From IMG/VR virus record IMGVR_UViG_3300037502_001755, positions 1 through 63,210 of that record: a stretch of 63,210 nt of DNA. One strand, written 5' to 3'. The notes below the pieces were generated by a model, which saw nothing but the letters and a program-made list of their open reading frames with translations, was not told the origin of the DNA and did no database searches. Origin of the DNA: a virus (lineage: Duplodnaviria > Caudoviricetes). The position numbers were made by a program, and so were the translations under genes. Of the stretch, positions 20,323-57,994 are shown piece after piece; position 1 is the stretch's first letter, and each line of letters begins with the position of its first letter.

Positions 20323-20340
20323 GGTTGGTTCTCCTTGGAG

Positions 20341-36758: not shown

Positions 36759-37088
36759 ATGCCCAGCAGCAGTAAGAAGCAGCACAACTTCATGGCGGCG
36801 GTGGCCAAGAACCCCGCGTTTGCCAAAAAGGCCGGAGTTCCCGCGAGTGTGGGACAAGATTTCCTCAACGCGGACAAGGGCCGCAAGTTTAAAGAAGGTG
36901 GCGATATGAAAGAGTCCAAGAAGATGATCGGTCAAGAACTGGCCTTCATGAAAAAGAAGGGCGCTCCCAAGTCCATGATTAAACATGAGAGGGGCGAGAT
37001 GAAGATGGCCAAGGGTGGCGGCATTGAGTCCAAAGGCAAGACCAAGGGCAAGATGATCACCATGAAGCGCGGCGGCAAAGCCTGCTAA
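36759..37088 (+). CDS. Small Lys-rich protein with three xxxGG tags (109 aa)
   Basis: MPSSSKKQHNFMAA; FKEGG, MAKGG, MKRGG. Confidence 0.75.
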   Translation: MPSSSKKQHNFMAAVAKNPAFAKKAGVPASVGQDFLNADKGRKFKEGGDMKESKKMIGQELAFMKKKGAPKSMIKHERGEMKMAKGGGIESKGKTKGKMITMKRGGKAC

Positions 37089-37102
37089 TTTAGGAGGTCG
37101 AC

Positions 37103-37471
37103 ATGGCAAGAAGTGAATTTGGCAACGCGTTTGCCGCAGCTCGTAAATCGGGGCTGAAGACCTTTGAGTTCAAAGGTAAGAAGTACACGACTGAACTGGC
37201 AAAGCCTAAAAGAGCCGCTGCGACTGCTGAATTGGGGTCGGAAATGGGGCAGAAAATGACCCCTGATGAGTCCGCTCGGGCCATGCGTAGGTTTGGTAAC
37301 CCTCCCGGTTCGGAGAGCCGAGTTGGTACAGAAACGCCTCAAGAAGAAACTTCCGACATGACCTACAGGAAGCGTGGCGGCCAAGTCAAGAAGATGGCGT
37401 CTGGCGGTTCGGCTTCTTCTCGTGCGGATGGCTGCATCACCAAAGGCCACACTCGCGGGAAGATGGTGTAA
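37103..37471 (+). CDS. Small basic protein
   Basis: AFAAARKSG.KTFEFKGKKYTT motif; KRGG, MASGG; SD AGGAGG. Confidence 0.8.
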   Translation: MARSEFGNAFAAARKSGLKTFEFKGKKYTTELAKPKRAAATAELGSEMGQKMTPDESARAMRRFGNPPGSESRVGTETPQEETSDMTYRKRGGQVKKMASGGSASSRADGCITKGHTRGKMV

Positions 37472-37473
37472 CC

Positions 37474-37749
37474 ATGCGAGCCAGCCGTGGTATGGGGGCC
37501 ATCAACCCCTCCAAAATGCCGGGGGCTAAGAAAAAGCCCCGGCGGGATGACACCGACTTCACTCAGTACGCTGAGGGAGGGAAGGTAAACGCGGCTGGCA
37601 ATTACACCAAACCCGGTCTGCGCAAGCGGATCGTGTCGCAGGTGAAGGCTGCTGCTACCCACGGCACCGGCGCAGGTCAATGGAGCGCGAGAAAAAGCCA
37701 ATTGGTAGCGAAAAAATATAAAGCTGCCGGTGGTGGGTATCGTGACTGA
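37474..37749 (+). CDS. Small basic protein (resembles N-half of DUF5872)
   Basis: YAEGG; NYTKPGLRKR...GQWSARKSQ...YKAAGGGY. Confidence 0.75.
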   Translation: MRASRGMGAINPSKMPGAKKKPRRDDTDFTQYAEGGKVNAAGNYTKPGLRKRIVSQVKAAATHGTGAGQWSARKSQLVAKKYKAAGGGYRD

Positions 37750-38200
37750 AGCGCTAAAGACCTGTACAGATTGCGGCGAAACAAAGCCGCTGTCCGCGTT
37801 TCGAAGCCGTGGTGGGCAGATGGCGCATCTGTACAAAAGTCACTGCAACACGTGCCTGTACAAGAGGCACAAGGCGTGGGCTGAAAGCAACCAGCACCGA
37901 GTGTCGGAGTATCGTGAAAAAGACCCGTGGACTTTAGCTAAGCGGTGTTCTCGTCGTGGCATCACTCCGGAACAGCTTGTAGATTGTTATGAACGGCAGG
38001 AAGGCTGCTGCGCCATCTGCAAATGTGAGGTGGCTTTGATCAACAGCGCTATCGACCACAATCACAATACGGGCGAATTCCGGGGAGTTCTGTGTAAACA
38101 GTGCAATCGTGCGCTTGGAATGTTTAAAGACAGCCCCGCCATCTTGCGTAACGCCGTAGAATATCTTGAGGATTTTGGGAGTTACGGCGATGGCACTTAA
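37742..38200 (+). CDS. Endonuclease VII-family (free-standing homing-type) endonuclease
   Basis: CTDC..CNTC; QEGCCAIC..IDHNH.TGEFRGVLCKQCNRALG. Confidence 0.9.
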   Translation: MTEALKTCTDCGETKPLSAFRSRGGQMAHLYKSHCNTCLYKRHKAWAESNQHRVSEYREKDPWTLAKRCSRRGITPEQLVDCYERQEGCCAICKCEVALINSAIDHNHNTGEFRGVLCKQCNRALGMFKDSPAILRNAVEYLEDFGSYGDGT

Positions 38201-38429
38201 AGCCCCGCAGCAGTCATTGAAGGCTTGGGGCGACCAGAAGTGGAGGACCAAAAGTGGCAAACCGTCTAGTAAAACTGGTGAGCGATACCTTCCAGAAGCT
38301 GCGATCAAAAGCCTCAGCTCTGCTGAGTACGCTGCAACAACGCGTGCGAAGCGTGCGGGCAAAGCTGCCGGGAAGCAATTCGTAAAGCAACCCAAGGGCA
38401 TAGCTAAGAAAACAGCAGGGTTTCGATAA
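38190..38429 (+). CDS. Small basic protein (resembles C-half of DUF5872)
   Basis: QQSLKAWGDQKWRTKSG..TGERYLPEAAIKSLS. Confidence 0.75.
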   Translation: MALKAPQQSLKAWGDQKWRTKSGKPSSKTGERYLPEAAIKSLSSAEYAATTRAKRAGKAAGKQFVKQPKGIAKKTAGFR

Positions 38430-39127
38430 TGGCAACCTCCGGCACCTCCAACTTCAACTTAGACCTCTCCGAGATTGTCGAAGAGGCGTTTGAGCGTTGC
38501 GGCTCGGAGATGCGCACGGGCTACGATTTGCGGACTGCCCGCCGCAGTTTGAATTTGTTGTTCGCCGACTGGGCCAACCGGGGCGTGAACATGTGGACGT
38601 TCGAGCAGGGCTCGATTGCGCTGACCGCTGGCACGGCCACGTATCTGCTGCCTACCGACACGGTCGACCTTCTTGAGCACGTCATTCGCACGGGGGCCGG
38701 AAGCGCGGCCACGCAGGCAGACCTGACCATCACGCGTATTAGTGTTTCTACCTACGCCACGATCCCCAACAAGCTTCAACAAGGCCGCCCCATCCAAGTG
38801 TGGATTGAGCGCCTGAATACCCCACAGATCACGGTCTGGCCTGTGCCGGACGATTCGCAGCCCTACACGTTTGTGTACTGGCGTCTGCGGCGTATTCAGG
38901 ATGCGGGCAACGGCGTCAACACGATGGACATGCCGTTCCGATTCATTCCGTGCATGGTTGCCGGGCTGGCGTACTACCTGTCGATGAAGGTCCCCGGTGC
39001 GGAAAGCCGCATGACTACCCTGAAAGCTCAGTACGACGAAGCGTGGGAGCTTGCTGCCACGGAAGACCGCGAAAAAGCGGCGGTGCGGTTTGTTCCGCGC
39101 AAATACTACTTGGGTAGCGGCACTTAA
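38429..39127 (+). CDS. Head-tail adaptor / tail tubular protein A-like
   Basis: IVEEAFERCG, ARRSLN, GRP, WPVPD, GLAYYL. Confidence 0.7.
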   Translation: MATSGTSNFNLDLSEIVEEAFERCGSEMRTGYDLRTARRSLNLLFADWANRGVNMWTFEQGSIALTAGTATYLLPTDTVDLLEHVIRTGAGSAATQADLTITRISVSTYATIPNKLQQGRPIQVWIERLNTPQITVWPVPDDSQPYTFVYWRLRRIQDAGNGVNTMDMPFRFIPCMVAGLAYYLSMKVPGAESRMTTLKAQYDEAWELAATEDREKAAVRFVPRKYYLGSGT

Positions 39128-39517
39128 ATGGCCAATCGGTTTGCCTCCGGTAAAAACGCCATCGCCATGTGCGACCGGTGTGGGCAGCGCTTTAAGCTCA
39201 GCGAACTTAAAACTGAGATTGTTAAAACTAAAAGGTACCAGCTTCTTGTCTGCCCGCCGTGCTGGGACCCCGACCAGCCGCAGTTGCAGTTGGGCATGTA
39301 TCCTGTGGACGACCCGCAGGCGCTGCGCAACCCTCGCCCGGACAGCACGTATCGTGTGGCGGGTACCGGGCCGGACGGCACCCTGACCGGCGGTAGCCGG
39401 ATAATTCAATGGGGATGGAACCCGGTTGGCGGAAGCAGATTTTTTGATGCCACACTGACGCCGAATAACTTGGTTTCGTCAGTACAAATTGGTACAGTAG
39501 TAGTTGTCACGACGTAA
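39128..39517 (+). CDS. Zinc-ribbon virion-associated protein
   Basis: CDRCG...CPPCWDPDQPQL. Confidence 0.7.
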   Translation: MANRFASGKNAIAMCDRCGQRFKLSELKTEIVKTKRYQLLVCPPCWDPDQPQLQLGMYPVDDPQALRNPRPDSTYRVAGTGPDGTLTGGSRIIQWGWNPVGGSRFFDATLTPNNLVSSVQIGTVVVVTT

Positions 39518-39527
39518 GGAGTCGATC

Positions 39528-39698
39528 ATGGACGCGATGAAGAAAGTGGCTAAGGCCGAAGTCAAGGCCCACGAGAAGCGCATGCACGGCGCTAAAGGTA
39601 TGCGCGCTGGCGGTAAGACCAACGCCGACATGCTCAAGTATGGGCGCAACATGGCCAAGGTCATGAACCAGCGCAGCCCCGGTCGTAAAGGAGCCTGA
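39528..39698 (+). CDS. Small basic protein (56 aa)
   Basis: SD AAGGAG; HEKRMH, MRAGG. Confidence 0.7.
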   Translation: MDAMKKVAKAEVKAHEKRMHGAKGMRAGGKTNADMLKYGRNMAKVMNQRSPGRKGA

Positions 39699-39699
39699 G

Positions 39700-39897
39700 A
39701 TGGCCACCTATAAAAACCCGAAGTACACCCCGCTGGAACCTGCGGGCACGATGCCGGTTAAAGAAGCTCTGCGGGCAAATCAATCGCTGGCCAACGAGCG
39801 CTCCAACCCCTATCCCGAGACCAAGACCAGCGGTATCAAAATCCGTGGTACCGGTGCGGCTACCAAAGGCGTGATGGCTCGCGGCCCGATGGCTTGA
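39700..39897 (+). CDS. Small basic protein (65 aa)
   Basis: SD AAGGAG; IRGTGAATKG motif. Confidence 0.7.
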   Translation: MATYKNPKYTPLEPAGTMPVKEALRANQSLANERSNPYPETKTSGIKIRGTGAATKGVMARGPMA

Positions 39898-39904
39898 GGA
39901 CGGC

Positions 39905-40612
39905 ATGAACTACACCGCGTTGGTCACTGCGATTCAGGACTACACTGAGAACACGTTTGATTACGGGTCCAACCCGTCAATCATCAACACGTTCATTCAG
40001 CAGGCCGAGCAGCGCATCTACAACACGGTGCAGTTTCCGTCGCTTCGCAAGAACGTGACGGGCATTACCACGGCGTCCAACAAGTACCTCTCGGCTCCCA
40101 CCGACTTCCTGTCGGTGTATTCGCTGGCGGTGATCGACGGCACGGGCAACTACGAGTACCTGCTCAACAAGGACGTGAACTTCATCCGGCAGGCGTACCC
40201 GAACCCCAGCAGTGTGGGCATTCCCAAGTACTACGCGCTGTTTGGCCCCACGACCACGGGCGGAGCCAACCCGGTGCTGACGGACGAGTTGTCGTTCATT
40301 CTGGGGCCGACCCCGGATACGCAGTACACAGTGGAGCTTCACTACTTCTTCTATCCGGAGTCCATCACGGTGGCTGGGGACGGGCAGACTTGGCTGGGCG
40401 ACAACTTTGACTCGGTGCTGCTGTACGGCTCGCTGGTTGAGGCGTACACGTACATGAAGGGTGAGCAGGATATGATGGCCCTGTACGACGGCAAGTACAA
40501 GGAAGCGCTGGCGCTGGCCTCGCGTCTGGGTGATGGTCTGGAGCGCAGCGATGCGTATCGCAGCGGACAGGCGCGTGTTGCACCTCTGCCGCAGAATAAC
40601 GGGGTCCGGTAA
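39905..40612 (+). CDS. Second adaptor / tail tubular-like protein
   Basis: FIQQAEQRI, GIPKYY, GPTPD..Y.VELHY, LLYGSLVEA. Confidence 0.7.
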   Translation: MNYTALVTAIQDYTENTFDYGSNPSIINTFIQQAEQRIYNTVQFPSLRKNVTGITTASNKYLSAPTDFLSVYSLAVIDGTGNYEYLLNKDVNFIRQAYPNPSSVGIPKYYALFGPTTTGGANPVLTDELSFILGPTPDTQYTVELHYFFYPESITVAGDGQTWLGDNFDSVLLYGSLVEAYTYMKGEQDMMALYDGKYKEALALASRLGDGLERSDAYRSGQARVAPLPQNNGVR

Positions 40613-41028
40613 TGGCGTTTACGGGCAACGTTACTTGCAACGTTTTCAAGCAAGGCTTGCTAAAAGGCGACTTCGACTTTGACTCGGACACCTTTTATTT
40701 GGCCCTGTACACGAACGCGGCAACGCTGGACGCCAACACCACTGAGTACACAACGACTGGTGAAGTTGTTGCATCCGGGTACACCGCTGGCGGTCTGCCT
40801 TTGACAGTTACAACGACTCCCGCGATTGGGGGCGACGTTGCGTATATTTCGTTTGGGAACGTCTCGTGGTCGTCGTCTTTGACTGCGCGGGGCGCGTTGA
40901 TCTACAAAGCTGGAGCCAACGGTGCTGTCTGCGTTCTGGACTTCGGTTCGGACAAAACCTCAACCAATTCTTTCACTGTGCAGATGCCCGCTAACACCAG
41001 CACGTCTGCTTTAATTCGGCTTGTTTAA
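40612..41028 (+). CDS. Fibre-module beta-sandwich protein (138 aa)
   Basis: FYLALYT..GEV..GYTAGG..ARGALIY..LDFG. Confidence 0.65.
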   Translation: MAFTGNVTCNVFKQGLLKGDFDFDSDTFYLALYTNAATLDANTTEYTTTGEVVASGYTAGGLPLTVTTTPAIGGDVAYISFGNVSWSSSLTARGALIYKAGANGAVCVLDFGSDKTSTNSFTVQMPANTSTSALIRLV

Positions 41029-41037
41029 GGAGCAACC

Positions 41038-41559
41038 ATGTTCAACGAAAAAGTTAAAGCTGGCGGCGTGTTCACTGTGCAGTGTCACGACCAAGACGGC
41101 AACCTCAAGTGGCAAGCTGAGAAGCACAACCTCGTGGTCAACGTCGGCCTCAAGGACATGAACGACAAGTACTTCACCGGCAGTGGTTACACCGCTGCTT
41201 GGTACATCGGTCTGTACGGCGCTGCTTCTTCCAACAACCCGGCTGCTGGCGACACCATGTCTTCTCACGGCGGCTGGACTGAAGTTACCGACTACAGCCA
41301 AGCTACTCGCCCCGCTGCTACGTTCGCTGCGGCTACCACCGCTGACCCGTCTGTGATCACGAACTCGGCTTCCCCGGCTACGTTTAGCATCAACGGCACG
41401 ACCACTGTGGGCGGCGCGTTCTTGACCAGCGATAACACCAAGGGTGGCACGACCGGCATTTTGTTCTCGGCCTCGGACTTCCAGTCTCCCGGCGACCGCT
41501 CGGTGGTCAACGGCGATACGCTGACCGTCACCTACACCTTCAGCCTCGACGCTGCTTAA
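41038..41559 (+). CDS. Fibre-module subunit (173 aa)
   Basis: NLVVNVG, WYIGL, GWTEV..Y..TRP, GDTLTVTY; biased codons, strong SD. Confidence 0.65.
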   Translation: MFNEKVKAGGVFTVQCHDQDGNLKWQAEKHNLVVNVGLKDMNDKYFTGSGYTAAWYIGLYGAASSNNPAAGDTMSSHGGWTEVTDYSQATRPAATFAAATTADPSVITNSASPATFSINGTTTVGGAFLTSDNTKGGTTGILFSASDFQSPGDRSVVNGDTLTVTYTFSLDAA

Positions 41560-41568
41560 GGAGGCCAC

Positions 41569-41748
41569 ATGGCTACCGCTTTCAAAAAGGGCGACGTTGT
41601 GAAGCTGGCCAGCGTGGTGCCGCAAGGCCCTGTGTTGGCTTTGCGAATGGACGACAGCGGCATCATCCAGTACCTCGTGGAGTGGGTGGATGCCAACGGT
41701 GTCACGCAACAACGCTGGTTCGACGAAGACAAACTGACGGGGGCTTAA
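41569..41748 (+). CDS. Small SH3-like protein (59 aa)
   Basis: Translated by hand: MATAFKKGDVVKL...YLVEW...RWFDEDKL; SD AAGGAGG. Confidence 0.7.
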   Translation: MATAFKKGDVVKLASVVPQGPVLALRMDDSGIIQYLVEWVDANGVTQQRWFDEDKLTGA

Positions 41749-41749
41749 T

Positions 41750-42208
41750 ATGGCCTTCGTCCTTGCGGACCGCGTCCGCGAGACTACGACAAGTACCGGC
41801 ACCACTGCGGTGACGCTGGCGGGAGCCGTCACGGGGTTTCAGACCTTCGCGGCAATCGGCAACGCCAACATCACCTACTACACCATCGCAGGGCAAGGCA
41901 CCTCCGAATGGGAGGTGGGAATCGGTACGTACACGGCCTCGGGCACTACGCTGTCCCGGGACACGGTGTTGGCGTCGAGTAACTCTGGTTCGCTGGTGAA
42001 CTTCTCCGCCGGTACCAAGGACGTGTTCTGTGACTACCCCGCTGGCCGCGCTGTCATCGGTGGCATGGGCTACATCGAGAACGCCGCCACCATCTCGGTG
42101 TCGTCCACCATCAACACGGGCAATAACGCCATCAGTGGTGGGCCTGTGACTGTGGACTCGGGCGTGACGGTGACTGTGCCCTCCGGGTCTACTTGGACGG
42201 TCGTCTGA
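41750..42208 (+). CDS. Tail fibre adaptor protein
   Basis: LADRVRETT, WEVGIGTY, FSAGTKDVF; C-terminal GPVTVDSGVTVTVPSGSTWTVV. Confidence 0.7.
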   Translation: MAFVLADRVRETTTSTGTTAVTLAGAVTGFQTFAAIGNANITYYTIAGQGTSEWEVGIGTYTASGTTLSRDTVLASSNSGSLVNFSAGTKDVFCDYPAGRAVIGGMGYIENAATISVSSTINTGNNAISGGPVTVDSGVTVTVPSGSTWTVV

Positions 42209-43293
42209 TGTTTGGCTTTTACGCGTTCTCCACTACCGCCATCTCTGCGCTGGCGGGGAACGTGTTCACGGCTGCGGTTATTGAGTCTGCCACTGCGTCG
42301 GATGCCAACGTCGCCCAGATTTCTGTACCGGCTTCTGTCTCGGAGCTTGCCTCTGGGGTAGATGCGGTTTCGGCGCGCATCACTTTTGGTACGGCGGTCT
42401 CGGAATCTGCCACGGGCAGCGACGCAGTTGCGGCTTTGGCGACGTTCGGTGGGGTGATTGCGGAGTCCGCTACCGGTAGCGAGACCGTGGCTGCTGCCGC
42501 GACGTTTGTGAGCGCGGTGGACGAGACTGCGACGGGTACGGATACGGTTTCTTCTACCCCGAACTACGCGGTGAGCGTAGCGGAGTCCGCCACTGGCAAC
42601 GACTCGGTTCTGGCGGGCGCGGTGCTGACCTCCAACATTTCGGAGACTGCTCAAGGCACGGATTTCACCTTCACCCAGCACGCCGTGTTCAGTGTGGTAG
42701 ACGAGGGGGCGACGGGCACGGATACGGTTGCTGCTGCGGCGACGTTCCCGGTGAGCGTGGCTGAATCTGCCCAAGGCAGCCAGACTAATTCTGCGGCTGC
42801 AAACTTTGCGGTTAGTTTTGTGGCAGGTGTGACGGCGCAGGACACAACTGCTTCGGTGCCCACCTACTCTGCGCAGATTGCGGAGACGGCTACTGGGTCG
42901 GACGCGACGGTTCCGAGCCTTGTCTATTTTGGCTTTGTGGACGAGACCGCAACAGGTACGGACGCTGCGGCGTCGCAGTTGATCCTCGGGGCTTCGGTGA
43001 TTGAAGCAGCTACGGGTAGCGAGACCATGGCGGCAGCGGCTACGTTCCCGGCGGTTATTGACGAGAGCGCCCAAGCGGCGGAAGCCTTTACTGTGATTGC
43101 GGCGTTCGCTGCCCTGATCCAAGAGAACGTAAACGCAGCGGACCAGATCATGGCCCGTCTGAAGTGGGAATTGATTGCGGACGCGCAGTCTGCCGGATGG
43201 ACAGTAATTGATGACACGGGGCCTTCCTCGTGGCAAAATGTTTCAACTTCGGCTGACGCTGGCTGGCGCAATATAGACACCAAGGAGCCTTAA
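42208..43293 (+). CDS. Protein with ~14 tandem 20-aa repeats
   Basis: E(S/T)A(T/Q)GxD repeated with an exact 20-residue period. Confidence 0.8.
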   Translation: MFGFYAFSTTAISALAGNVFTAAVIESATASDANVAQISVPASVSELASGVDAVSARITFGTAVSESATGSDAVAALATFGGVIAESATGSETVAAAATFVSAVDETATGTDTVSSTPNYAVSVAESATGNDSVLAGAVLTSNISETAQGTDFTFTQHAVFSVVDEGATGTDTVAAAATFPVSVAESAQGSQTNSAAANFAVSFVAGVTAQDTTASVPTYSAQIAETATGSDATVPSLVYFGFVDETATGTDAAASQLILGASVIEAATGSETMAAAATFPAVIDESAQAAEAFTVIAAFAALIQENVNAADQIMARLKWELIADAQSAGWTVIDDTGPSSWQNVSTSADAGWRNIDTKEP

Positions 43294-43884
43294 ATGCCAT
43301 CCGCATATACCTCGCTGCTCGGGTTCGTGCAGCCCGTCACCGGGGAGTTAAACAACACTTGGGGCAACGCCGTCAACAATCAGTTAACGCAACTGGTTGA
43401 AGATTCGATTGCCGCTACGTCCACTGCGGACGTGACGGCTGGCAACTGGACCCTGTCCACCACTGCTGGCGGTGCGGCCAACGAAGCCCGGACTGCCATT
43501 CTGATTGCTACCGGTACGCCCGGTACGGCTCGGATTGTCTACGCCCCCAAGTCCAGCAAGACCTACGTGGTCATCAACAACAGCGACAGTACCCTGACGC
43601 TCAAGGGTGGCCCGGGGTCTCCGACCACGGGTATCGCGCTTGCCCCTGATAGCTCGGTGTTGGCTGCGTGGGACAGCGATGTGGGCGACTTCGTGAAGGT
43701 TGCCGGAGGCGGTGGCGGTGCCACGGGTGGTGGCGCGAACCAAGTGTTTTTTGAAAACGACCAGACAGTCACCAACGACTACACCATCCCCGGCAACAAG
43801 AACGCCGGTACGTTTGGCCCCATCACGGTGGACAGCGGCATTACGGTGACGGTGTCTTCGGGCGCTGTGTGGACGATTGTTTAA
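43294..43884 (+). CDS. Proximal tail fibre/adaptor protein
   Basis: GE..NTWG..N N-terminus; C-terminal GPITVDSGITVTVSSGAVWTIV. Confidence 0.7.
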   Translation: MPSAYTSLLGFVQPVTGELNNTWGNAVNNQLTQLVEDSIAATSTADVTAGNWTLSTTAGGAANEARTAILIATGTPGTARIVYAPKSSKTYVVINNSDSTLTLKGGPGSPTTGIALAPDSSVLAAWDSDVGDFVKVAGGGGGATGGGANQVFFENDQTVTNDYTIPGNKNAGTFGPITVDSGITVTVSSGAVWTIV

Positions 43885-43893
43885 GGGGTAACC

Positions 43894-46731: not shown

Positions 46732-46733
46732 AC

Positions 46734-48908: not shown

Positions 48909-48917
48909 GGGCCACTC

Positions 48918-51263
48918 ATGCCGCTCCAGAAAATTCTCTTCAAGCCCGGGGTCAACCGGGAGAACACGCGGTACACGACCGAAGGGGGTTGGTACGACTG
49001 CGAGAAGGTGCGCTTTCGTCAAGGCACGCCCGAGAAGATTGGTGGCTGGCAGCAGATTTCTCCGTACACCTTCCAAGGTGTGTGCCGCTCGCTGTGGACT
49101 TGGGGCACCGTAACCAACCCGACAGTGATCACGGGCGTGGGCACCAACAAGAAGTTCTATATCGAAGAAGGCGGTGCGTACAACGACATCACTCCTGCCC
49201 GCGACTACGAGGGGCCGCTGACCAATCCGTTTGCAGCATCGACGGGGTCCACCACAATCACGGTGACTGACACCGCGCACGGCTGCCAGACGGGGGACTT
49301 TGTAACGTTCCTTGGGGCGCAGGGCCTGAGCACGCAGACTTTTACGAGGTCCTCCGCTACGGACTTTGTCTTGTCTACGGCGCTTGCAGACAACACCCCG
49401 GTGCTGCTCTCCGTTTCTGCGGGCGGCGCTTTGCCGACCGGCTTGCTCACGGGGGTGCAGTATTTTGTGCAGGTGGTGGCGGGCACTACGATCAACTTCT
49501 CGAACGTGATTGACGGTGCGGCTATCAGCACCACCACTGCGGGTTCGGGCACGTTCTCGTTAGAAGTGAATCAAGGCATCACCTCGGCGGTGCTCAACCA
49601 GAACTTCGAAGTCACGCTCGTCAACGCCAACAGTTACACGATCCAGAGTCCAGTGGCTGCAACGGCTTACGACGTGGGCGGAGGCGGCACTTCCGTTTAT
49701 GCCGTGTATGAGGTCCCCACGGGTAGCGAGATTGTTACGCCGCTCAGTGGCTGGGGCGCAGGCTCTTGGAGTTCGGGTCCGTGGGGTGTTGGCACTTCAA
49801 CGCTGATCGGTGCGCGGCTTTGGTATCAGAACAATTTTGGTGAAGACCTCGTTTACGGTTACCGGGGCGGCGCGCTGTACTACTGGAACGCCAAGATTGG
49901 CGTCAGCCCCGGGGTCTTCACCGTGACGATTGCCTCTCCCGGGGTGGTGACGTTTTCCAGTTCGGAGTTGGTGGACGGCACAGCAGTGGTGCTGGAGACG
50001 ACGGGCGCGCTGCCCACGGGCCTCACGGTGGGTGTGGTGTATTACGTTGTCAACGCGGTCAGCAACGTATGTAATCTGGCAGCTACGCCGGGCGGCACGC
50101 CCATCACTACTACTGGCACTCAGTCGGGCGTCCACTATGTGTCGCCTCGGGGGCTCCCGGTTGCGAGTCTGGCGGGGGCGTCCGATGTGCCGACGGCGGT
50201 CAACAATATGATCGTCTCGGATGTGAGTCGGTTCGTGATAGCAATGGGCTGCAATCCGCTGGGAGAGACTGAGATCGACCCAATGCTCATTCGCTGGACT
50301 GATCAGGAGTCGGTGGTGAACTGGACCCCGGCAGCAACCAATCAAGCAGGCGGCACGCGGCTGTCTCACGGCTCTGAGATTCGCACGGGTATCCAGTCTC
50401 GACAGGAGATTTTGGTGTACACCGACGCAGCGTTGTATTCGTTGCAATACCTCGGGCCTCCGTATGTCTGGGGTGCACAGCTTCTGGGTGACAACATCTC
50501 TATCGCCGGAGTGAATACGGCCATCGTTGCGTCCGGTATCACGTACTGGATGGGCGTGGACAAGTTTTACATGTACTCGGGGCGCGTGCAGACATTGCGA
50601 TGCGACCTTCGCCAATACATTTATGGCGACATCAACCTCGACCAGCAGGATCAGTTTTTTGCCGGGACCAACGAAGGCTTCAATGAGGTCTGGTGGTTCT
50701 ACTGCTCGTCTGGCTCCACTGTGGTGGACCGCTACGTGGTCTACAACTACGCTGAGGACATCTGGTACTACGGCACGATGGGGCGCACGGCATGGGTGGA
50801 CTCGGGGCTAAACGCTTACCCGATGGCTGCGACCTACTCCAACAATCTCGTGTTTCACGAACTTGGTGTGGATGACAACGTCTCTGGGACACCCGTTGCG
50901 ATTGATTCGTACATCACCTCGTCTCAGTTTGATATTGGCGACGGTCACGCATTTGGTTTTATTTGGCGTTTGATCCCAGACGTGACGTTCCGTGGCTCGA
51001 CTGCGGCCAGTCCGCAAGTGTCGATGACGCTGCTGCCACTACAAAACTCAGGCTCTGGGTACAACAACCCGCCTTCTGTTGGCGGAACTGACAGCGCGGC
51101 TGTAGTGCGTAGCGCCACGGTTCCTGTCGAGCAATTTACGGGGCAGGTCTACATCCGGGTGCGCGGGCGGCAGATGTCGTTCAAAGTGGCGGGCAACCAG
51201 CTTGGCCTTCAGTGGCAGCTTGGCGCACCGCGTATCGACATCAAACCGGATGGCCGGAGGTAA
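48918..51263 (+). CDS. Tail nozzle (P22 gp10 / tubular B-like) with inserted beta domains
   Basis: KPGVNRE, EKIGGW; propeller-like repeats; EVWWFY, YVVYNY; RVRGRQ. Confidence 0.75.
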   Translation: MPLQKILFKPGVNRENTRYTTEGGWYDCEKVRFRQGTPEKIGGWQQISPYTFQGVCRSLWTWGTVTNPTVITGVGTNKKFYIEEGGAYNDITPARDYEGPLTNPFAASTGSTTITVTDTAHGCQTGDFVTFLGAQGLSTQTFTRSSATDFVLSTALADNTPVLLSVSAGGALPTGLLTGVQYFVQVVAGTTINFSNVIDGAAISTTTAGSGTFSLEVNQGITSAVLNQNFEVTLVNANSYTIQSPVAATAYDVGGGGTSVYAVYEVPTGSEIVTPLSGWGAGSWSSGPWGVGTSTLIGARLWYQNNFGEDLVYGYRGGALYYWNAKIGVSPGVFTVTIASPGVVTFSSSELVDGTAVVLETTGALPTGLTVGVVYYVVNAVSNVCNLAATPGGTPITTTGTQSGVHYVSPRGLPVASLAGASDVPTAVNNMIVSDVSRFVIAMGCNPLGETEIDPMLIRWTDQESVVNWTPAATNQAGGTRLSHGSEIRTGIQSRQEILVYTDAALYSLQYLGPPYVWGAQLLGDNISIAGVNTAIVASGITYWMGVDKFYMYSGRVQTLRCDLRQYIYGDINLDQQDQFFAGTNEGFNEVWWFYCSSGSTVVDRYVVYNYAEDIWYYGTMGRTAWVDSGLNAYPMAATYSNNLVFHELGVDDNVSGTPVAIDSYITSSQFDIGDGHAFGFIWRLIPDVTFRGSTAASPQVSMTLLPLQNSGSGYNNPPSVGGTDSAAVVRSATVPVEQFTGQVYIRVRGRQMSFKVAGNQLGLQWQLGAPRIDIKPDGRR

Positions 51264-51269
51264 AGCAGT

Positions 51270-52004
51270 ATGGACAAAAAATACAAAGTTCAAGGCGCGT
51301 ACTTTGTGCCCAACACGCCGCAGTACGAAGCTTTTGCAAAAGCTGTTTCCAAACGTCCCGACGCATGGACTGCCGCCGGTGGGGTGTACCTTCCTTCAGA
51401 AAAGGAAGTTACCGAACAGAACTACATTCGCGCCCGCCGTGCTAACCCCTTAAACAAGTTCGGGGCAAAAGACCGGATGGAGACCCAAGACTACGGGTAC
51501 GACCGCGAGACCATGGCCAATCTTCTTGGAGCCTACAAAAAGGCCTCAGAAAAACACGGCGTGCAGATGCTGCACCCGGACGATCTAACTAACCTTGCGT
51601 TGGTTGAGGGCCGGTCGAACTTTGGCTACAACGAGTACAACGTCAACAACCGCAGAGCAGCCAAGATTGCACAAGACTTGGTAGCGCAGGGAATCGATCC
51701 GTATGCCGCAGGTTTTCCGGCGGCGATTGTTGATAAACAGATGCAGGCCAAGCGTCTGAATGTTCCGTTTTATCAAGTCTGGAACGGTGCAGGGCCCAAA
51801 GCCAAAGAGTACGCCAAGAAGATCGAAGAGCATCGGTACGCCGTGGAGGACCCGCGTAACAAGGATTTGCGGGACTTTATCCGTCAGACGGTCGGATACA
51901 AAGAACCTGCCGCTCAAGTGGCCATGGCAGCGCCCGAATTTAAACGCGGTGGGCCTGTCAGCATGCCTGAAAGTTACAGTTCCGGAAACTGGAAACTGAT
52001 TTAA
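51270..52004 (+). CDS. Possible lysozyme-fold/transglycosylase virion protein
   Basis: LALVEGRSNFG (candidate catalytic E), WNGAG..AKEY; C-terminal FKRGG tag. Confidence 0.5.
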   Translation: MDKKYKVQGAYFVPNTPQYEAFAKAVSKRPDAWTAAGGVYLPSEKEVTEQNYIRARRANPLNKFGAKDRMETQDYGYDRETMANLLGAYKKASEKHGVQMLHPDDLTNLALVEGRSNFGYNEYNVNNRRAAKIAQDLVAQGIDPYAAGFPAAIVDKQMQAKRLNVPFYQVWNGAGPKAKEYAKKIEEHRYAVEDPRNKDLRDFIRQTVGYKEPAAQVAMAAPEFKRGGPVSMPESYSSGNWKLI

Positions 52005-52016
52005 CGGAAGCTGCTG

Positions 52017-53405
52017 ATGACCCTGATCGTCACCTCTGAGTTTGAACTTAACCGTGTCACAGCGCCGCGTTTACCAAACGCACCTACTGAGTACGAGCAG
52101 CGCTACCACGATCAGTTCGCTGACGTTCTGCGCCTGTATTTCAACCGGCTGGACAACATTCTGGGGCAACTGGTAGCTTCTATGGAAACAATCCCCGTAT
52201 CAATCGGCGGCACCAATACGGACGCTTTTGGGCGGCTGCGGGTCAGCCAGCCCTATACCCTCTTTGACAGCCAGAACCGCTACGCGGCAGACAACCAGTT
52301 TGATGTCGCAACGACCGGGACGGGCACAACTACGTTCCTCTCCAACGAGGCGGCGGTCAAAATGGAAGTCGCCGGGGCGGGCGTGGGCACCGTAACCCGA
52401 CAGTCCTTCCGTTCGTTTCCGTACCAACCGGGCAAGGGCTTGCTGGTGCTGGCAACCTTTGTCATGGACAGCAGCCAGAGCCTGAACCTGACCCAGCGGG
52501 TGGGCTACTACAACGACAGCAACGGCGTGTTCTTCCAGCGCGTGGACGGGACGTATTCTTTTGTGCTACGTTCTAGCTCAATCCCCACTCCGGGTACGCC
52601 CAGTGATGTTCGCACGGTCAATCAATCCTCGTGGAACGGCGACAAGCTGGACGGCACCGGAGCTTCTGGCCTGACGCTGGACCCCTCCAAGGCGCAGATT
52701 TTGTGGATGGACTTTGAGTGGCTGGGTGTCGGCTCGGTGCGCTGCGGCTTCATTATTGACGGCCAGTACATCGTCTGCCACACCTTTGAGAACGCTAACG
52801 ATATCACTAGTGTGTACATGACGACGGCTATTCTACCCGTTCGTTACGAAATTAACACTACAACTTCGGCAGTGGCTGCGTCCATGAAGGCGATCTGCTG
52901 CTCTGTGGTATCTGAGGGTGGCTTTGAGCAGACCTCCATTGACCATGTGGCGCGGCGCACCACGATCTTGGGCACGATTGGGACGACGTTCTTGCCGCTG
53001 GTGTCTATCCGGCTGGCTGCTGGGCGCACGGGCGCGGTGGTGTTACCTAACCGGGTTCAGGTTTTGCCAACCACCAGCCAGAACTACGAGGTTGTTCTAA
53101 TTAAAAACCCAACCCTGACCGGGGCAACTTTTGCGGCTACGGTACCTTCTGATTCCAACGTGGAGTTTGACGTAGCTGCCACCGCCACAACGGGCGGGAC
53201 GATTGTTCAGTCGGATTATCTTGCGTCCAACACCGCCGGGGGCACCGGGAGCACCAGCTTTGCCAACGCCTACAACTTTGACCTCCAGCTTGGCGCGTCG
53301 ATTGCCGGGGTCAGTGATATTTACACCGTAGCAATTCGCACGGTTTCCGGGGCCACAACCGGCGATGCTCTTGGGTCGCTGTCTTTCTTTGATTTGACGC
53401 AGTAA
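52017..53405 (+). CDS. Tail needle/spike with lectin-like head
   Basis: N-terminal P.LP.AP.EY..LRLYFN; DAFGRLRVS, YQPGK, WLGVG.VR.GF. Confidence 0.65.
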   Translation: MTLIVTSEFELNRVTAPRLPNAPTEYEQRYHDQFADVLRLYFNRLDNILGQLVASMETIPVSIGGTNTDAFGRLRVSQPYTLFDSQNRYAADNQFDVATTGTGTTTFLSNEAAVKMEVAGAGVGTVTRQSFRSFPYQPGKGLLVLATFVMDSSQSLNLTQRVGYYNDSNGVFFQRVDGTYSFVLRSSSIPTPGTPSDVRTVNQSSWNGDKLDGTGASGLTLDPSKAQILWMDFEWLGVGSVRCGFIIDGQYIVCHTFENANDITSVYMTTAILPVRYEINTTTSAVAASMKAICCSVVSEGGFEQTSIDHVARRTTILGTIGTTFLPLVSIRLAAGRTGAVVLPNRVQVLPTTSQNYEVVLIKNPTLTGATFAATVPSDSNVEFDVAATATTGGTIVQSDYLASNTAGGTGSTSFANAYNFDLQLGASIAGVSDIYTVAIRTVSGATTGDALGSLSFFDLTQ

Positions 53406-53434
53406 TTGCCTCTAAGAACCCCCCATGTTAGACT
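53406..53434 (+). promoter_or_regulatory. Promoter TTGCCT-17-TAGACT with TG extension, upstream of the ejection genes
   Basis: Hexamers at 53406-11 and 53429-34. Confidence 0.6.
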
Positions 53435-53462
53435 CAATTAACCCCCATTCCGTGAGGCCCCA

Positions 53463-54881
53463 ATGAGCCTACAAGTTGCCGCTAAACACCTTGCATCCAA
53501 GGGCCGTGGTCCGGACACGATGCTTGTCCACATGGCTCCGAGCGAAGTCGCGGGGCTGCAAGCGTTGGCGCGTGCTCATGGTGGCACGCTGACTACCAAC
53601 CCAGATACCGGCCTGCCTGAAGCTGGGTTTTTAAGAGCAATTCTGCCGATGGTTGCCGGTGCGGGGCTGACGTTTATTTCCGGCGGCGCTATCAACCCGC
53701 TGACAGCGGGCCTTATCACGGGCGGTGTTACTGGTGTGGCTACCGGCAGTCTCAAACAAGGTTTGATGGCGGGCCTTGGCGCTTATGGTGGTGCAGGTAT
53801 TGGCAGTGTGGTGAGCGGTGCTGGCGCTGGCGCTGCTTCCAATATGGCTGCCGCAGAAGCCGCAGCGGCGGGCGAGCTTGCTGCGCAACAAGCGATTATC
53901 CCGTCTGGTATTCCCGCAGCGCCTGTTACTCCAGTGGCTCCGCCTGTTGCCACTGCGCCTGTTGTGCCCGCAGAATACGCTTCGCTTAGTGCGACTCCTG
54001 ATAACTTTGGTGCGTTTGGGGAGCCGCCGATCTCGGCTACCCCCGCTGCACCTGCTGCATCGGTGACTGACCCAGTCACCCGGATGAACATGGAAGTTGC
54101 ACAGGGAGCGCCTACGGTTATGAATAGCCCCGCACCCGCCGCTTCTACTCCGTACTATCCTGAAAATGTTGGTGGCGAGTACATGCGCCCCACTGGTCCA
54201 AGCTACGAGCAGATGCGCTCGGCGGGTTTATCTGACGCACAAATTTCGCAGAGCGCACGAGATTACGCATCCAACATGAAAGGGTTTGCACAAGACCCGT
54301 TCTCTCCGGCCACGCGTGAAGCGATGTCCAGCCCGATTTCGACAGGCATCAAAGCAATCGCTGACAAGCCGTCGCTGCTCTTCAACAAAGAGAACCTCAA
54401 GTACGGTGCCGCTGCTGCTGCGCCGCTGATGTTCCAAGAACCCGAAAAAGGTTCCGGCTATCAAGGCAGCGGCCCCAATCCGTTCCAGTACGAGTACGAC
54501 CCCAACACGCAGACCTACGCCTCCACGTCGTCCTCCAGTGCGGAGCGGCAGTACTTTGATCCGCGCTATCGGCGTTTGGCCTCAGGCGGCATCTCTAACT
54601 TGGGCGACTACTCTGATGGCGGTCGCCTGCTGCGCGGCCCCGGTGATGGCGTCTCGGACTCCATTCCTGCATCTATTGCCGATAAGCGCCCCGCACGCCT
54701 TGCCGATGGTGAGTTCGTGGTCCCCGCGCGTGTTGTGTCTGAACTGGGTAACGGCTCGACTGAGGCAGGCGCGCGTAAGCTGTACGCCATGATGGACCGT
54801 ATTCAGAAAAATCGCGCTAAGACTATTGGTAAAGGCAAGGTAGCTGTAAACAGCCGCTCTGAGAAGCTGCTTCCGGCATGA
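53463..54881 (+). CDS. Internal virion/ejection protein with conserved N- and C-terminal modules
   Basis: GRGPDTMLVH...NPDTGLPE; Gly-rich TM region; YSDGG..GPGDGVSDSIPA..DGEFVVPA. Confidence 0.7.
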   Translation: MSLQVAAKHLASKGRGPDTMLVHMAPSEVAGLQALARAHGGTLTTNPDTGLPEAGFLRAILPMVAGAGLTFISGGAINPLTAGLITGGVTGVATGSLKQGLMAGLGAYGGAGIGSVVSGAGAGAASNMAAAEAAAAGELAAQQAIIPSGIPAAPVTPVAPPVATAPVVPAEYASLSATPDNFGAFGEPPISATPAAPAASVTDPVTRMNMEVAQGAPTVMNSPAPAASTPYYPENVGGEYMRPTGPSYEQMRSAGLSDAQISQSARDYASNMKGFAQDPFSPATREAMSSPISTGIKAIADKPSLLFNKENLKYGAAAAAPLMFQEPEKGSGYQGSGPNPFQYEYDPNTQTYASTSSSSAERQYFDPRYRRLASGGISNLGDYSDGGRLLRGPGDGVSDSIPASIADKRPARLADGEFVVPARVVSELGNGSTEAGARKLYAMMDRIQKNRAKTIGKGKVAVNSRSEKLLPA

Positions 54882-55342
54882 GCATTCAATACGCTGTAGA
54901 AGACCCCGCGACCTTCATCGAGGAGTTCAAAGTGCTCGCCCCAGCCCACTACGAAGAGCTGTGTGTGACCAAGGACTTCCCGATGGACCCGGACCTTGAA
55001 GCGTATGGCAAGCTACATATGGCGGGGATGCTCAAGTGTGTGACGGCACGGGATGATGAAGAGCTGGTTGGGTACGCTATTTTTATTGTGCAGCCGCACC
55101 TGCACTACAAGTCATGTAAGACAGCGTTTGAGGATTTGTATTTCCTCAAGAAGACACACCGACTGGGGCGCACGGGTATCCGGCTCTTTCAGTTTGCAGA
55201 AGAGGCGCTTCGCGCAGAAGGGGTGCACCGCATCATCTTCCATACGAAAGTGCATTTAGACAATTCGCGGCTGTTTGAGTACTTGGGCTACAAGCACACG
55301 GACAAGCTGTACACAAAGATACTGAGTACGGAGCAATCATGA
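54878..55342 (+). CDS. GNAT-family acyltransferase
   Basis: ELVGYAIF, DLYFLKKTHR.GRTG..L, RLFEYLGY. Confidence 0.85.
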   Translation: MSIQYAVEDPATFIEEFKVLAPAHYEELCVTKDFPMDPDLEAYGKLHMAGMLKCVTARDDEELVGYAIFIVQPHLHYKSCKTAFEDLYFLKKTHRLGRTGIRLFQFAEEALRAEGVHRIIFHTKVHLDNSRLFEYLGYKHTDKLYTKILSTEQS

Positions 55343-56244
55343 GCTACTCTCGCCGACAACTCGAAGCGCTGGGGGAACCCCTTGGCGACTGCGTTACCCG
55401 CAAAGAGGGTGGCCGAATCATTTATGGTGGCGGCGGTAGTAGCAGCCCTCCCGCTACGCAGACGCAGATCTCCGATCTGCCGGACTGGGCCAAACCTACT
55501 GCCCAGAAGCTGCTGGGCAAAGCCGAAGCGTTGGTTGAAGGTTCTCCGTACCAACAATATAAGGGCGAACGTATTGCTGGGTTCTCGCCGCTGCAACAGC
55601 AGGCATTCCAAGGTGCCGCCCAGATGGATGCGGGGCCCCAAGGGTTTGCCCAGCAGGTCGGACAGTACATGTCTCCGTACATGCAGAACGTTGTCGACCG
55701 CGAAAAGATGGAGGCGTATCGCGCCTCCCAGATGTTGGGCCAGCAGCAGCAGGCCCGGGCTACGCAGGCCGGTGCGTTTGGTGGTTATCGCGAAGGAATT
55801 GAACGCGCTGAGCGTGAGCGTGGGTTGCGTTCCCAGTTGGGCGACATTCAAACCCGTGGCCTGCAATCCGCATACGACCGCGCAGCCGATCAGTTCCGTA
55901 CCGGGATTACGCAAGGGCTGGCCGTGGGCCAACAGCAATCGCAGCTTGGCGGCATGCAGCAACAGCGCGAACAGAACGTCATGTCCCAGCAGTATCAGGA
56001 CTTCCTGAACCAGCAGCGGTATCCGTACCAGCAGCTTGAGTACCTGTCCGGCATCCTACGCGGCACGCCCATGGGCACTGTTAATACTTTGTATGGCGGA
56101 CAGCCCAGCGCCGCTTCGCAACTTCTTGGCGCGGGCACGTCGTTGGCTGGCGCGTACATGCTGGGTGGCGGGAAATTTGCCGAAGGTGGCGAAGTTCAAT
56201 CACGCCCCGCCGGTCTTGCTGAACTGGCTATGACCAAGATTTGA
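55339..56244 (+). CDS. Ejection/DNA pilot protein
   Basis: Leader then GGGGSS; LPDW, YMSPY, GAFGG; Gln-rich; C-terminal FAEGG. Confidence 0.7.
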   Translation: MSYSRRQLEALGEPLGDCVTRKEGGRIIYGGGGSSSPPATQTQISDLPDWAKPTAQKLLGKAEALVEGSPYQQYKGERIAGFSPLQQQAFQGAAQMDAGPQGFAQQVGQYMSPYMQNVVDREKMEAYRASQMLGQQQQARATQAGAFGGYREGIERAERERGLRSQLGDIQTRGLQSAYDRAADQFRTGITQGLAVGQQQSQLGGMQQQREQNVMSQQYQDFLNQQRYPYQQLEYLSGILRGTPMGTVNTLYGGQPSAASQLLGAGTSLAGAYMLGGGKFAEGGEVQSRPAGLAELAMTKI

Positions 56245-56251
56245 GGACGCC

Positions 56252-57994
56252 ATGATTAACGTCGACCAGATTACCGCCCGGCTGGCCAAAATGCCCGACA
56301 CCGCGTTGCAGCAATATGCTGCAATGCACAAAAACGACCCGTACATCATGGCGCTGGCGGTGTCGGAGTCCAATCGCCGCAAGCAAGTTCGCCAAGCCGC
56401 GCAGGGTGCGCAAGGCGAGATGGAGCAGCCCAAAGTTGCCGATCAGGCGCTGGCTGAGATGGCCCCACAGGTGTTGCCGGAGGAGCAGGGGATTGCGCAG
56501 CTACCCGTGGGCGACATGGAGTTTGCCGGTGGCGGCCTCGTGGCGTTTGCTGGTGGTGGGGATGTTGAGCGGTATGCGCCGGGGGGTATGCCCCCCACAT
56601 CGGAAGAGGCTGAGCGTTTGCTTCGAGAAGCTCGTGCCCGTGCAGCGCAACGTGCAGCTATGCGGCCTGTCGGACCGCATTCGGTGTTTCCTCGTGCAGT
56701 TATGCCTGCTGCGGCGGGGCCTTTGTCTGCTGCGCTCATCCCAGCGGCGGTGCCGATTGGGCTGGCAGGGGCCTTGGTGTCTGGGATGGAGGGCATGCGG
56801 GAGGAGGGTTATCCCGTAGATACAACTGCACCGGAGTTTGCGACCGAGGCTACGCCAGAGCAAATCGCTTTTGATGCCCAGCGTGTTGCCAGAGCGCGGG
56901 CACTTGCTGCTCCTTCTGCTCCTTCTACCCCTTCCGCCCCGGCGGCTGCGGCTGCCGGGTCTATCTCACCTGAGGCCATGGCCCAAGCGCGTACGCCAAG
57001 GACGGGTGTGGAATCAACCACATCTACGTACACGCGGTCGGGCCGCCCTGCTCCCGGGGCTCCTAGCGCGCCTGCGGCTCCCGGTACTAAACCTGCTGGT
57101 GGTCCCGGTGCTGCACCTGTGGATGCTGCGGCTACTGCTGCGGCTTCCGGTATTGCCGGGCTGGATGTTGGCAGGATGACTGCTGACGCGCTTAGAGTCG
57201 CTGGACAACAGCCCAATCCGTTTGCGGCGGACGTAGAGCGGGTTGGTAAAGAAAAGGTCAAAGCGGCAGAAGAAAAAGTGAAAGGGTTGGAGGCTATCCA
57301 CAAACAGTTTTCCGACATCTTCAAAGGCCGCAAGGAGCGCTTGGACACCCGCGAAGCCGAAATTGGAAAGATGAAAGACCAGAATATTGGTCTGTCGCTG
57401 TTGCAAGCGGGTGCCACCATGATGTTCACGCCCGGCGGTGTGGGCGCGGCGTTGGGTAAAGGTGTCAAAGTTGGCACGGAGCAGTACGCAGCAGGGTTGG
57501 ACCGGTTGCGCGGTGCGCAGGAAAAACTGCTGGATGCGCGGGATCGACTGGAAGAGATTGAGAATCAACGCAGTGAGATGTCGGCTCGTGAGCTGTTTAC
57601 CGCCCGCAACGAAGTGAAAAACATCGGCATCTCTGTCAAAGAGGACTTGATCAAGTCCAACATGCAGATGTACGGCGTAAATCGCGATACCGCCATGAAG
57701 ATGGTTGAGCAACAAATTAAGCTCGGCATCTCTGTGTACGAGCAACAGCAGCAGACCAAACGCACAGGCATGTCCAACGCTGCGACCCTTGAAGCTGCAA
57801 GAATTGCCGCTGCGTCACGAGCCACTGGACGCGACTCTGAAATGGAAGAGTACACCAAATGGCTTAAAGAGAATCCGCAGTACATGGCCAACCCGCAAGC
57901 CGGTGTTCAAGCGTTCCTCAAAGCCAAGGCAGCGATCTCAGGGTTTACAAACACGACTCTCACCGATAAGCCTGCGGGTAGAGAGCGCGAGTGA
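56252..57994 (+). CDS. Ejection/internal virion protein
   Basis: FAGGGLVAFAGGG..YAPGG; Pro/Ala linker; amphipathic helices and coiled coil. Confidence 0.7.
   Translation: MINVDQITARLAKMPDTALQQYAAMHKNDPYIMALAVSESNRRKQVRQAAQGAQGEMEQPKVADQALAEMAPQVLPEEQGIAQLPVGDMEFAGGGLVAFAGGGDVERYAPGGMPPTSEEAERLLREARARAAQRAAMRPVGPHSVFPRAVMPAAAGPLSAALIPAAVPIGLAGALVSGMEGMREEGYPVDTTAPEFATEATPEQIAFDAQRVARARALAAPSAPSTPSAPAAAAAGSISPEAMAQARTPRTGVESTTSTYTRSGRPAPGAPSAPAAPGTKPAGGPGAAPVDAAATAAASGIAGLDVGRMTADALRVAGQQPNPFAADVERVGKEKVKAAEEKVKGLEAIHKQFSDIFKGRKERLDTREAEIGKMKDQNIGLSLLQAGATMMFTPGGVGAALGKGVKVGTEQYAAGLDRLRGAQEKLLDARDRLEEIENQRSEMSARELFTARNEVKNIGISVKEDLIKSNMQMYGVNRDTAMKMVEQQIKLGISVYEQQQQTKRTGMSNAATLEAARIAAASRATGRDSEMEEYTKWLKENPQYMANPQAGVQAFLKAKAAISGFTNTTLTDKPAGRERE

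Follow-up and report, generated by a model that had tools for sequence, protein, structure and literature searches.

A conserved aromatic-x-x-Gly-Gly joint in eight late proteins of an environmental podovirus, a possible maturation-cleavage site

The maturation proteases adenain of adenovirus and pS273R of African swine fever virus (ASFV) recognise the site (M/I/L)-x-G-G, with a hydrophobic residue at P4, and the capsid-targeting sequence of phage T4 is an N-terminal peptide that is removed by the prohead protease. Among the components of the phage infection machinery, the ejection proteins of podoviruses and the tape measures of siphoviruses are understood least, and their loading, maturation and expulsion are largely unexplained. 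According to the available sections of PMC12617516, lambda gpH is cut within its glycine-rich C-terminal region, both the site and the catalyst being given there as unknown, and residues 818-849 alone are resolved in gpHC. In T5, cleavage of pb2 after R1127 gives pb2* and pb2C (PMC10038345, in part), and mature P22 gp7 starts KGGKG after the host enzyme OpdA takes off 20 residues between SYPE and KGGKGG (GenBank note; PMC8402733, in part); in the same part of the latter source, deletion of the gp7 leader leaves ~60% of the burst, and procapsid binding proceeds via residues 21-154, the leader not being needed for packaging. Here, we analysed the 63,210-nt IMG/VR virus record IMGVR_UViG_3300037502_001755 (the whole record is referred to as the window), in which a short hydrophobic-x-x-Gly-Gly motif recurs in eight late proteins; the original prediction, made from the sequence, had proposed it as a tag for the sorting or processing of capsid cargo. 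It seems firm that this motif, hereafter the joint, is a selected short linear element at the module boundaries of a set of internal or ejected proteins, and the carriers are most likely kept inside the head and expelled with the DNA.

The 41 late proteins (11,380 amino acids) and the 41 early proteins of the window were each shuffled separately 500 times, the motif having been defined after it was noticed. In the late proteins, [FYM]..GG occurred 22 times compared to 8.1 ± 2.8 times after shuffling (0/500 shuffles reached the observed count), and the tight form [FYM][AK].GG occurred 11 times compared to 1.5 ± 1.2 (0/500). The predicted preference for x-V/I after the glycines was also found, with 20 copies of GG.[VI] compared to 9.8 (0/500). 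In contrast, the early proteins had 4 copies of [FYM]..GG compared to 3.4, which is no excess, and shifted registers were not enriched in the late proteins ([FYM].GG, 7 compared to 8.2; [FYM]GG, 9 compared to 8.1; GG..[FYM], 7 compared to 8.2). Shuffling inside 12- or 20-residue blocks left the excess in place (23 compared to 9.7, with a second gene set), and local Gly-rich composition is therefore not its cause. When the late proteins were divided post hoc, the eight carriers had 17 copies compared to 2.4 (0/1000), whereas the remaining 33 had 5 compared to 5.8, again no excess. Those five include copies in TerL and in proteins 43894, 48918 and 40612 (proteins are named by their first nucleotide); the copies in 43894 and 48918 are not conserved. 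The copy in 40612 (40612-41028, + strand), a 138-aa tail-region protein matching phrog_644, is YTAGG, which is invariant in 59/59 orthologues and is also found in HTVC027P and HTVC023P. As this copy is invariant inside a folded tail protein that relatives without the system have as well, the pentapeptide can be an ordinary structural turn.

Conservation was assessed in 160 related IMG/VR loci by taking the best + strand open reading frame match per locus, dropping identical sequences and keeping matches with coverage of at least 50%, which gave up to 59 orthologues per family. The two glycines were near-invariant while the median identity of the families was 33-54%, and this held at 33-42% identity where the flanks had diverged. 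The P5 residue was limited to M, Y or F, with L in 39528 and at the LASGG joint. At the joints, 2-4 synonymous Gly codons were in use, which points to selection on the peptide rather than the DNA. Across 265 distinct sites, the consensus was [K/G]-[M/Y/F]-[A/K]-x-G-G-x-[V/T]. Taken with the late-specific excess (22 compared to 8.1 late, 4 compared to 3.4 early), the near-invariant glycines bear out the claim that the motif is real, late-specific and under selection at the protein level. All 14 pentapeptides first reported, plus YRKRGG, were found where they had been placed, and all lie on the + strand.

Four of the carriers are small basic proteins (pI 10.2-10.9). Protein 36759 (36759..37088, 109 aa, pI 10.3) has an N-terminal domain like that of phiKZ 165.1, followed by FKEGG (36888-36902), MAKGG (37005-37019) and MKRGG (37062-37076), and ends in GGKAC; in its family the glycines are kept in 55-57 of 57 orthologues at two sites and in 53 of 57 at the third. 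As the part in common with phiKZ 165.1 is the N-terminal domain only and the joint is absent from 165.1, the latter was rejected as a joint carrier. Protein 37103 (37103..37471, 122 aa, pI 10.2) carries YRKRGG (37364-37381) and MASGG (37394-37408), the glycines of which are kept in 23/23 orthologues; MASGG is followed by a conserved basic tail of 20 aa (S-R-A-D-G-C...G-K-T-R-G-K). A search with this family returned 424 matches, of which the 120 listed all bore the source name 'hypothetical protein'. Protein 37474 (37474..37749, 91 aa, pI 10.7) carries YAEGG at 37567-37581 (residues 32-36; glycines in 55/56 orthologues), and its domain match to phrog_17747 begins at residue 36, the last Gly of the joint. 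Protein 39528 (39528..39698, 56 aa, pI 10.9) carries MRAGG at 39600-39614 (40/40). Proteins 36759 and 37103 have tail modules in common, and 37474 and 39528 have GGK[VT]N in common. Separately, conserved tails containing Cys were seen to close the small basic proteins (37062-37088 and 37409-37471), and the Cys is kept in most orthologues.

The other four carriers are larger. Protein 53463 (53463..54881, 472 aa) is a tape-measure-like ejection protein with a conserved N-terminal module, a variable middle and a nearly invariant C-terminal module (54576..54878); the latter opens with LASGG (54576-54590) and YSDGG (54609-54623) and continues as GPGDG..SDSIPA..DGEFVVPA..LGNG..LYAMM. The YSDGG glycines are kept in 40/40 and 39/40 orthologues, and in relatives 1-4 more degenerate copies lie upstream of YSDGG at a spacing of 8-11 residues. 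No Pfam or NCBIfam match was obtained for 53463. Protein 55339 (55339..56244, 301 aa) is an ejection protein, with a match to the PHROG 'DNA ejection protein' family phrog_4287 (E = 5e-10); FAEGG (56176-56190) lies 17 residues from its C-terminus and is kept in 55/59 orthologues. Its optional leader of 28 residues reads MSYSRRQLEALGEP... and ends at YGGGG (55423-55437; IIY-GGGG). Protein 56252 (56252..57994, 580 aa), also an ejection protein, has a helical N-terminal domain and then a triple joint, FAGGG (56522-56536), FAGGG (56546-56560) and YAPGG (56573-56587); residues between the copies are conserved (I-V-A-F, V-x-R-[YF]), as is the first joint (23/23). Protein 51270 (51270..52004, 244 aa) is a putative member of the set, with FKRGG (51939-51953) 16 residues from its C-terminus; it has a single homologue in ten related genomes, in which the aromatic residue of FKRGG is missing. 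The predicted nature of the carriers thus stood for the small proteins, which are basic, for 55339, which matches an ejection-protein family, and for 53463, which ends like a tape measure, and was not supported for 51270: the muralytic role assigned to it finds no family or PDB match. The joint is internal or C-terminal in 6/8 carriers.

The excess extended through the clade. Ten complete relatives (TerL identity 47-90%) were compared, with genes called by a codon-usage scorer that recovers the late block of the window; these genomes share kinship and are not ten independent tests. In proteins on the TerL strand, [FYM]..GG was found 244 times compared to 115.8 ± 11.5 (0/200) and [FYM][AKS].GG 138 times compared to 26.8 ± 4.8 (0/200), in the same carrier families throughout, whereas the other strand showed no excess (20 compared to 31.6 and, for the tight form, 6 compared to 6.3). 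This is the late-versus-early enrichment across the clade that had been put forward as a check. The form [LIV]..GG reached only 260 compared to 227. The closest cultured relatives, at 33-42% portal identity, are HTVC027P/023P, DSL-LC04, Pag-Yong1, CRP-901/902 and Caulobacter RW. HTVC027P had 8 copies of the tight motif compared to 2.3 (0/200), in unrelated small basic proteins adjoining the portal gene, and HTVC023P had 8 compared to 3.5 (4/200). No excess was found in Caulobacter RW (6 compared to 6.8), Alcaligenes QDWS535 (6 compared to 6.0) or CRP-902 (8 compared to 9.6). The T7 core proteins gp13-16 likewise had none (1 compared to 1.5), and P22 gp7, gp20 and gp16 had zero copies of [FYM]..GG; on these counts, podovirus cores do not carry the motif in general.

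In the ten relatives, the joints coincide with breaks in homology. Homology to 53463 restarts at residues 369-376, the position of LASGG, in 7/10 relatives (BLAST blocks), after a middle that varies so that the homologues are 286-923 aa long; homology to 55339 stops at residues 280-297, at or just past FAEGG, in 5/10. Like the window, G001, G003 and G009 encode the homologues of 55339 and 56252 separately; in G002, G004, G005, G007 and G008 the two make up one protein of 694-947 aa, and a motif cluster lies where they meet. Members of the 55339 family always have the Gly run ahead of the conserved domain; a leader of at least 15 residues, of several unrelated types, stands before this run in 31/59 orthologues, 22/59 start at the Gly run itself, and a few have whole modules there, including the C-terminal module of 53463. 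The last ~90 residues of 53463 are nearly invariant (alignment A1). A profile made from A1 matched 13,319 cluster representatives, 2,864 of them at E ≤ 1e-30, and among the best 150 of the 13,319 matches the module was C-terminal in proteins of 121-1056 aa. An AlphaFold2 monomer of A1 had one helix and a mean predicted local distance difference test (pLDDT) score of 54.7, falling below 50 at YSDGG; a model of residues 1-140 of 56252 (A2) had a mean of 62.2, with confident N-terminal helices and 45-49 at the triple joint. A complex prediction with three copies of the A1 module scored 0.01 against a mark of 0.42, which is evidence neither way.

Several rearrangements of these modules were seen in single loci. 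A C-terminal module of the 53463 type is duplicated in tandem in L025 and is fused upstream of a 55339-type domain via HYAAGG and FAAGD joints in L047. The N-terminus of 53463 (53463-53800) reads GPDTMLVHMAPSE...GGTLTTNPDTGLPE, then passes into a hydrophobic stretch resembling a Gly zipper, and forms a conserved module that in some relatives (L050, L074) is instead fused ahead of a 55339-type domain.

Among the described systems, lambda gpH comes close to 53463. The precedent first proposed was confirmed in that gpH contains FATGG at 733 and YATGG at 778, and the order of FATGG 733, GEFV 754, LYRLM and YATGG 778 follows that of YSDGG..DGEFVV..LYAMM. The ordered elements [FY]-[AS]-x-G-G, a G-x-G run, G-E-F-V, L-G-x-G and L-Y-x-[LM]-M all occur, at 383-460 in 53463 and 733-775 in gpH, although the hhalign comparison of A1 with gpH was weak (E = 0.0016, probability 16%). 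A cut of gpH after F733 would yield 12.5 kDa by calculation. However, gpH serves as the tail ruler in a long-tailed phage, with two copies in one protein, whereas the window phage is a podovirus without a tail tube and has eight carriers; its podovirus-type tail genes, and the C-terminal place of the module in proteins of such different lengths, do not fit 53463 as a length ruler of a long tail. In T5 pb2, FVPR precedes and AEGGMM follows the mapped cut, which thus falls directly before A-E-G-G, in the register in which the window motif has [M/Y/F] before [A/K]-x-G-G. T5 pb2C has a metallopeptidase motif, the His of which is absent from the 53463 module. P22 gp7 and 55339 are both podovirus ejection proteins in which a short leader, of 20 and 28 residues, respectively, is followed by a Gly run; BLASTP between them was marginal (E = 0.019 over 28 residues), and such processing is known for just one P22 protein. 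The sole match of the A1 profile among PDB sequences was the Douge tape measure gp16 (PDB 8zdo), in which two repeats, SYAGGGFLSGPGTGRSDS..ARVSNGEFI, align to the C-terminal profile of 53463 (E = 0.008); these are internal in a ruler of 1,699 aa, whereas the 53463 module is C-terminal. In the available part of PMC13033339, only residues 1658-1699 of gp16 are built into the map, and the repeats lie outside the model.

The adenovirus, ASFV and T4 systems resemble that of the window in that small basic core proteins, along with several others of the virion, have a single short Gly-Gly site in common. The window motif differs from the first two in having its hydrophobic residue at P5, and the adenovirus-type register hydrophobic-x-GG, offered earlier as a parallel, was the shifted form [FYM].GG without enrichment (7 compared to 8.2). 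Its sites are also not N-terminal propeptides, and no gene for a clan CE or T4-type protease was found. Targeting of the T4 type is likewise at odds with the internal or C-terminal joints and with a separate scaffold-like protein, acidic and coiled-coil, at 32586-33575 (+ strand).

A protease or other reader was sought among the phage genes. No peptidase family was recognised in 42 late proteins with PHROGs, in 40 with Pfam or in 12 with NCBIfam, and, in agreement with the original prediction, no prohead or clan CE protease was found with these libraries in 42 late and 34 early-strand or other proteins. The sole peptidase-like gene, on the early strand (19120-20322, − strand), encodes a DUF2201_N putative metallopeptidase (HENFH) with a VWA domain. 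It belongs to a trio (18198-21465, − strand) with a DUF3150 gene (18198-19181) and a neighbour of 374 aa without a family (20341-21465); the trio is kept as a block in 7/10 relatives and is absent from G005, G006 and G009, and the gene was rejected as the reader because it is missing from these 3 of 11 motif-rich genomes. The giant polyvalent-type protein of ~2,690 aa (58081-63210, then 1-2949, + strand; 1,710 + 983 codons), proposed earlier as a giant zincin and possible reader, has no HExxH and no peptidase family in either part. Its only recognised domain is LPD38 near the end (Pfam, NCBIfam and PDB sequences; PHROGs for the N-terminal part only). Protein 33568, another candidate, has homologues in RW and CRP-902, both without the excess, and its protein-atlas matches were unnamed viral clusters only. 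The GNAT-fold acetyltransferase gene (54878..55342, + strand), which overlaps the start of 55339 (ATGA), was found in only 8 of the 160 fetched loci and was rejected. Mimicry of the GroES mobile loop (A-G-G-I-V-L) was discarded, since it fits the joints of 56252 only and not the consensus. Homologues of the scaffold, capsid, portal, GroES-like and 33568 proteins occur also in phages without the excess. PDB sequence searches with 51270 and 52017 gave no match.

The reading that we rank first, tentatively and as something short of probable, is one in which disordered linkers are cut at the joint during maturation. It is ranked first because the only mapped events at comparable places, in T5, P22 and probably lambda, cut just upstream of Gly-Gly, one of them by a host enzyme. 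The protease, not visibly encoded by the phage and probably of the host, would likewise cut just upstream of Gly-Gly; by analogy with T5, the cut might follow the M/Y/F residue and create new N-termini of the form A-x-G-G. Precursors would then give smaller pieces, namely basic peptides, the C-terminal module of 53463 (~90-100 aa) and a mature 55339 without its leader, and the fused 55339/56252 proteins would be separated into 55339-like and 56252-like halves. Genes that split at the joints, and leaders that are optional there, would be expected if the pieces work separately. Several observations weigh against cleavage. No protease common to the clade was found; the literature yielded no virion proteomics for this phage clade, and no cleavage has been observed there. 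Some joints lie 2-3 residues from the C-terminus (GGKAC in 36759, GGKK in HTVC027P), where a cut behind the Gly-Gly would have little effect, and the triple joint of 56252, with its conserved residues between copies, resembles a small unit for folding or binding more than it does three independent cut sites. As judged from sequence, the link to T5 is a resemblance at the level of the motif only: T5 has Arg where the window motif has M/Y/F, and the profile comparison of A1 with the pb2 C-terminus was not significant (E = 0.53). The P22 register, Y-x-x-x-G-G, is also unlike that of the window.

The joint might instead stay uncut and serve as a loading or docking tag, a multivalent linear motif recognised by a shared phage receptor (be it scaffold, portal, capsid interior or other carriers) for uptake into the procapsid or its core. 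We consider this rather doubtful. The confinement of the excess to the presumed internal or ejected set, with none in the other 33 late proteins, would fit such a tag, as would the presence of the motif in unrelated small basic proteins by the HTVC027P portal gene (8 compared to 2.3, 0/200) and the arrangement of the joints as conserved islands within disordered segments, frequently close to a terminus and in tandem runs of 2-5 copies, as for avidity to an oligomer. However, no conserved copy occurs in the giant protein, which is presumably the largest cargo, and tape measures, which belong to the tail and not the head, carry the joint too; the same two facts leave the general capsid-cargo tag of the original prediction unsupported. 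Furthermore, P22 gp7 binds procapsids via residues 21-154 and not via its leader, and the scaffold, capsid, portal and 33568 proteins have homologues in RW and CRP-902, both without the excess. Electron cryomicroscopy maps do not resolve those parts of lambda gpHC, T5 pb2C and Douge gp16 that bear the motif, so that no ordered docking is seen in virions. A hinge that folds on demand, in which uncut aromatic-x-x-Gly-Gly-x-Val turns are unfolded in the virion and adopt beta structure, singly or between chains, only after ejection in a conduit across the envelope, the later fold being what is conserved, appears unlikely to us. It would account for the tandem period of 8-11 residues with conserved residues between copies, for strongly conserved segments that are predicted to be disordered as monomers, and for the use of the same pentapeptide as an invariant turn in the folded tail protein 40612 (59/59); moreover, refolding of tape measures and ejection proteins into channels is reported in the available parts of PMC12617516 and PMC8954989. 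Such a hinge leaves unexplained the single copies in small basic proteins and those 2-3 residues from a C-terminus, and the restriction of P5 to M/Y/F ([LIV]..GG, 260 compared to 227) suggests a pocket rather than plain strand packing.

It is improbable that the copies have no shared function and are leftovers of common descent, microhomology for recombination or a product of Gly-rich composition. The tail modules common to 36759 and 37103, the GGK[VT]N common to 37474 and 39528 and the shuffling of modules at joints are what descent would leave behind, but neither register controls nor shuffles of local composition remove the excess, the amino acids stay fixed as the codons drift, and conservation persists at 33-42% identity despite diverged flanks.

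Beyond the clade, cleavage at the joints could be extended to a 'joint code', in which hydrophobic/aromatic-[A/K]-x-G-G marks cut sites in tape measures of long-tailed phages and in podovirus internal or ejection proteins for a conserved, probably host, protease. The cut would fall one residue past the aromatic position, as at R1127|AEGG of T5 pb2, and would turn polyprotein-like precursors into sets of peptides and domains. We hold this to be distinctly unlikely; if true, it would explain the 50-year-old puzzle of lambda gpH cleavage, together with gene splits and fusions and module swaps at joints. We found no description of the motif in the literature on tape measures, ejection proteins and Gly-Gly, and the word 'glycine' occurs 0 times in the ejection-protein review PMC8954989; papers found under phage names were genomic studies, as judged from listings and abstracts, and none of those listed for the motif itself dealt with phages. 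What is new here is the spread of the joint over eight separate late proteins of a podovirus, four of them small and basic, the late-only, clade-wide statistics, the natural gene fission at the joint and the optional leader. The clade is abundant in the environment, the C-terminal module of 53463 alone accounting for 13,319 cluster representatives, and the position of the joint at or near the lambda and T5 cut regions offers a concrete, mutable handle. Cleavage at the joints would make precursors of injected peptides and domains out of many 'small hypothetical' virion genes and of giant tape measures; without cleavage, the joint would be a candidate loading or assembly tag for packaging foreign cargo.

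The window is a whole IMG/VR record with an estimated completeness of 98%. Its last open reading frame, that of the giant protein, is open at the record end and resumes in frame at the start, which indicates that the record is a permuted circle. The late genes run on the + strand from 27357 to the record end and include the large terminase, an 815-aa portal, a GroES-like gene and an HK97-type capsid protein (34657) without a delta domain. Downstream of the head genes lie two paralogues of the SU10-type adaptor, fibres and a GH19 lysin; the two SU10_adaptor Pfam matches mark the tail genes as podovirus-type, and the late block closes with 'virion structural' and ejection proteins. An endonuclease VII/HNH-type gene (37730-38200, + strand) lies among the genes for the small basic proteins; it was missed by the codon-based caller, and its atypical codon usage suggests a mobile insertion.

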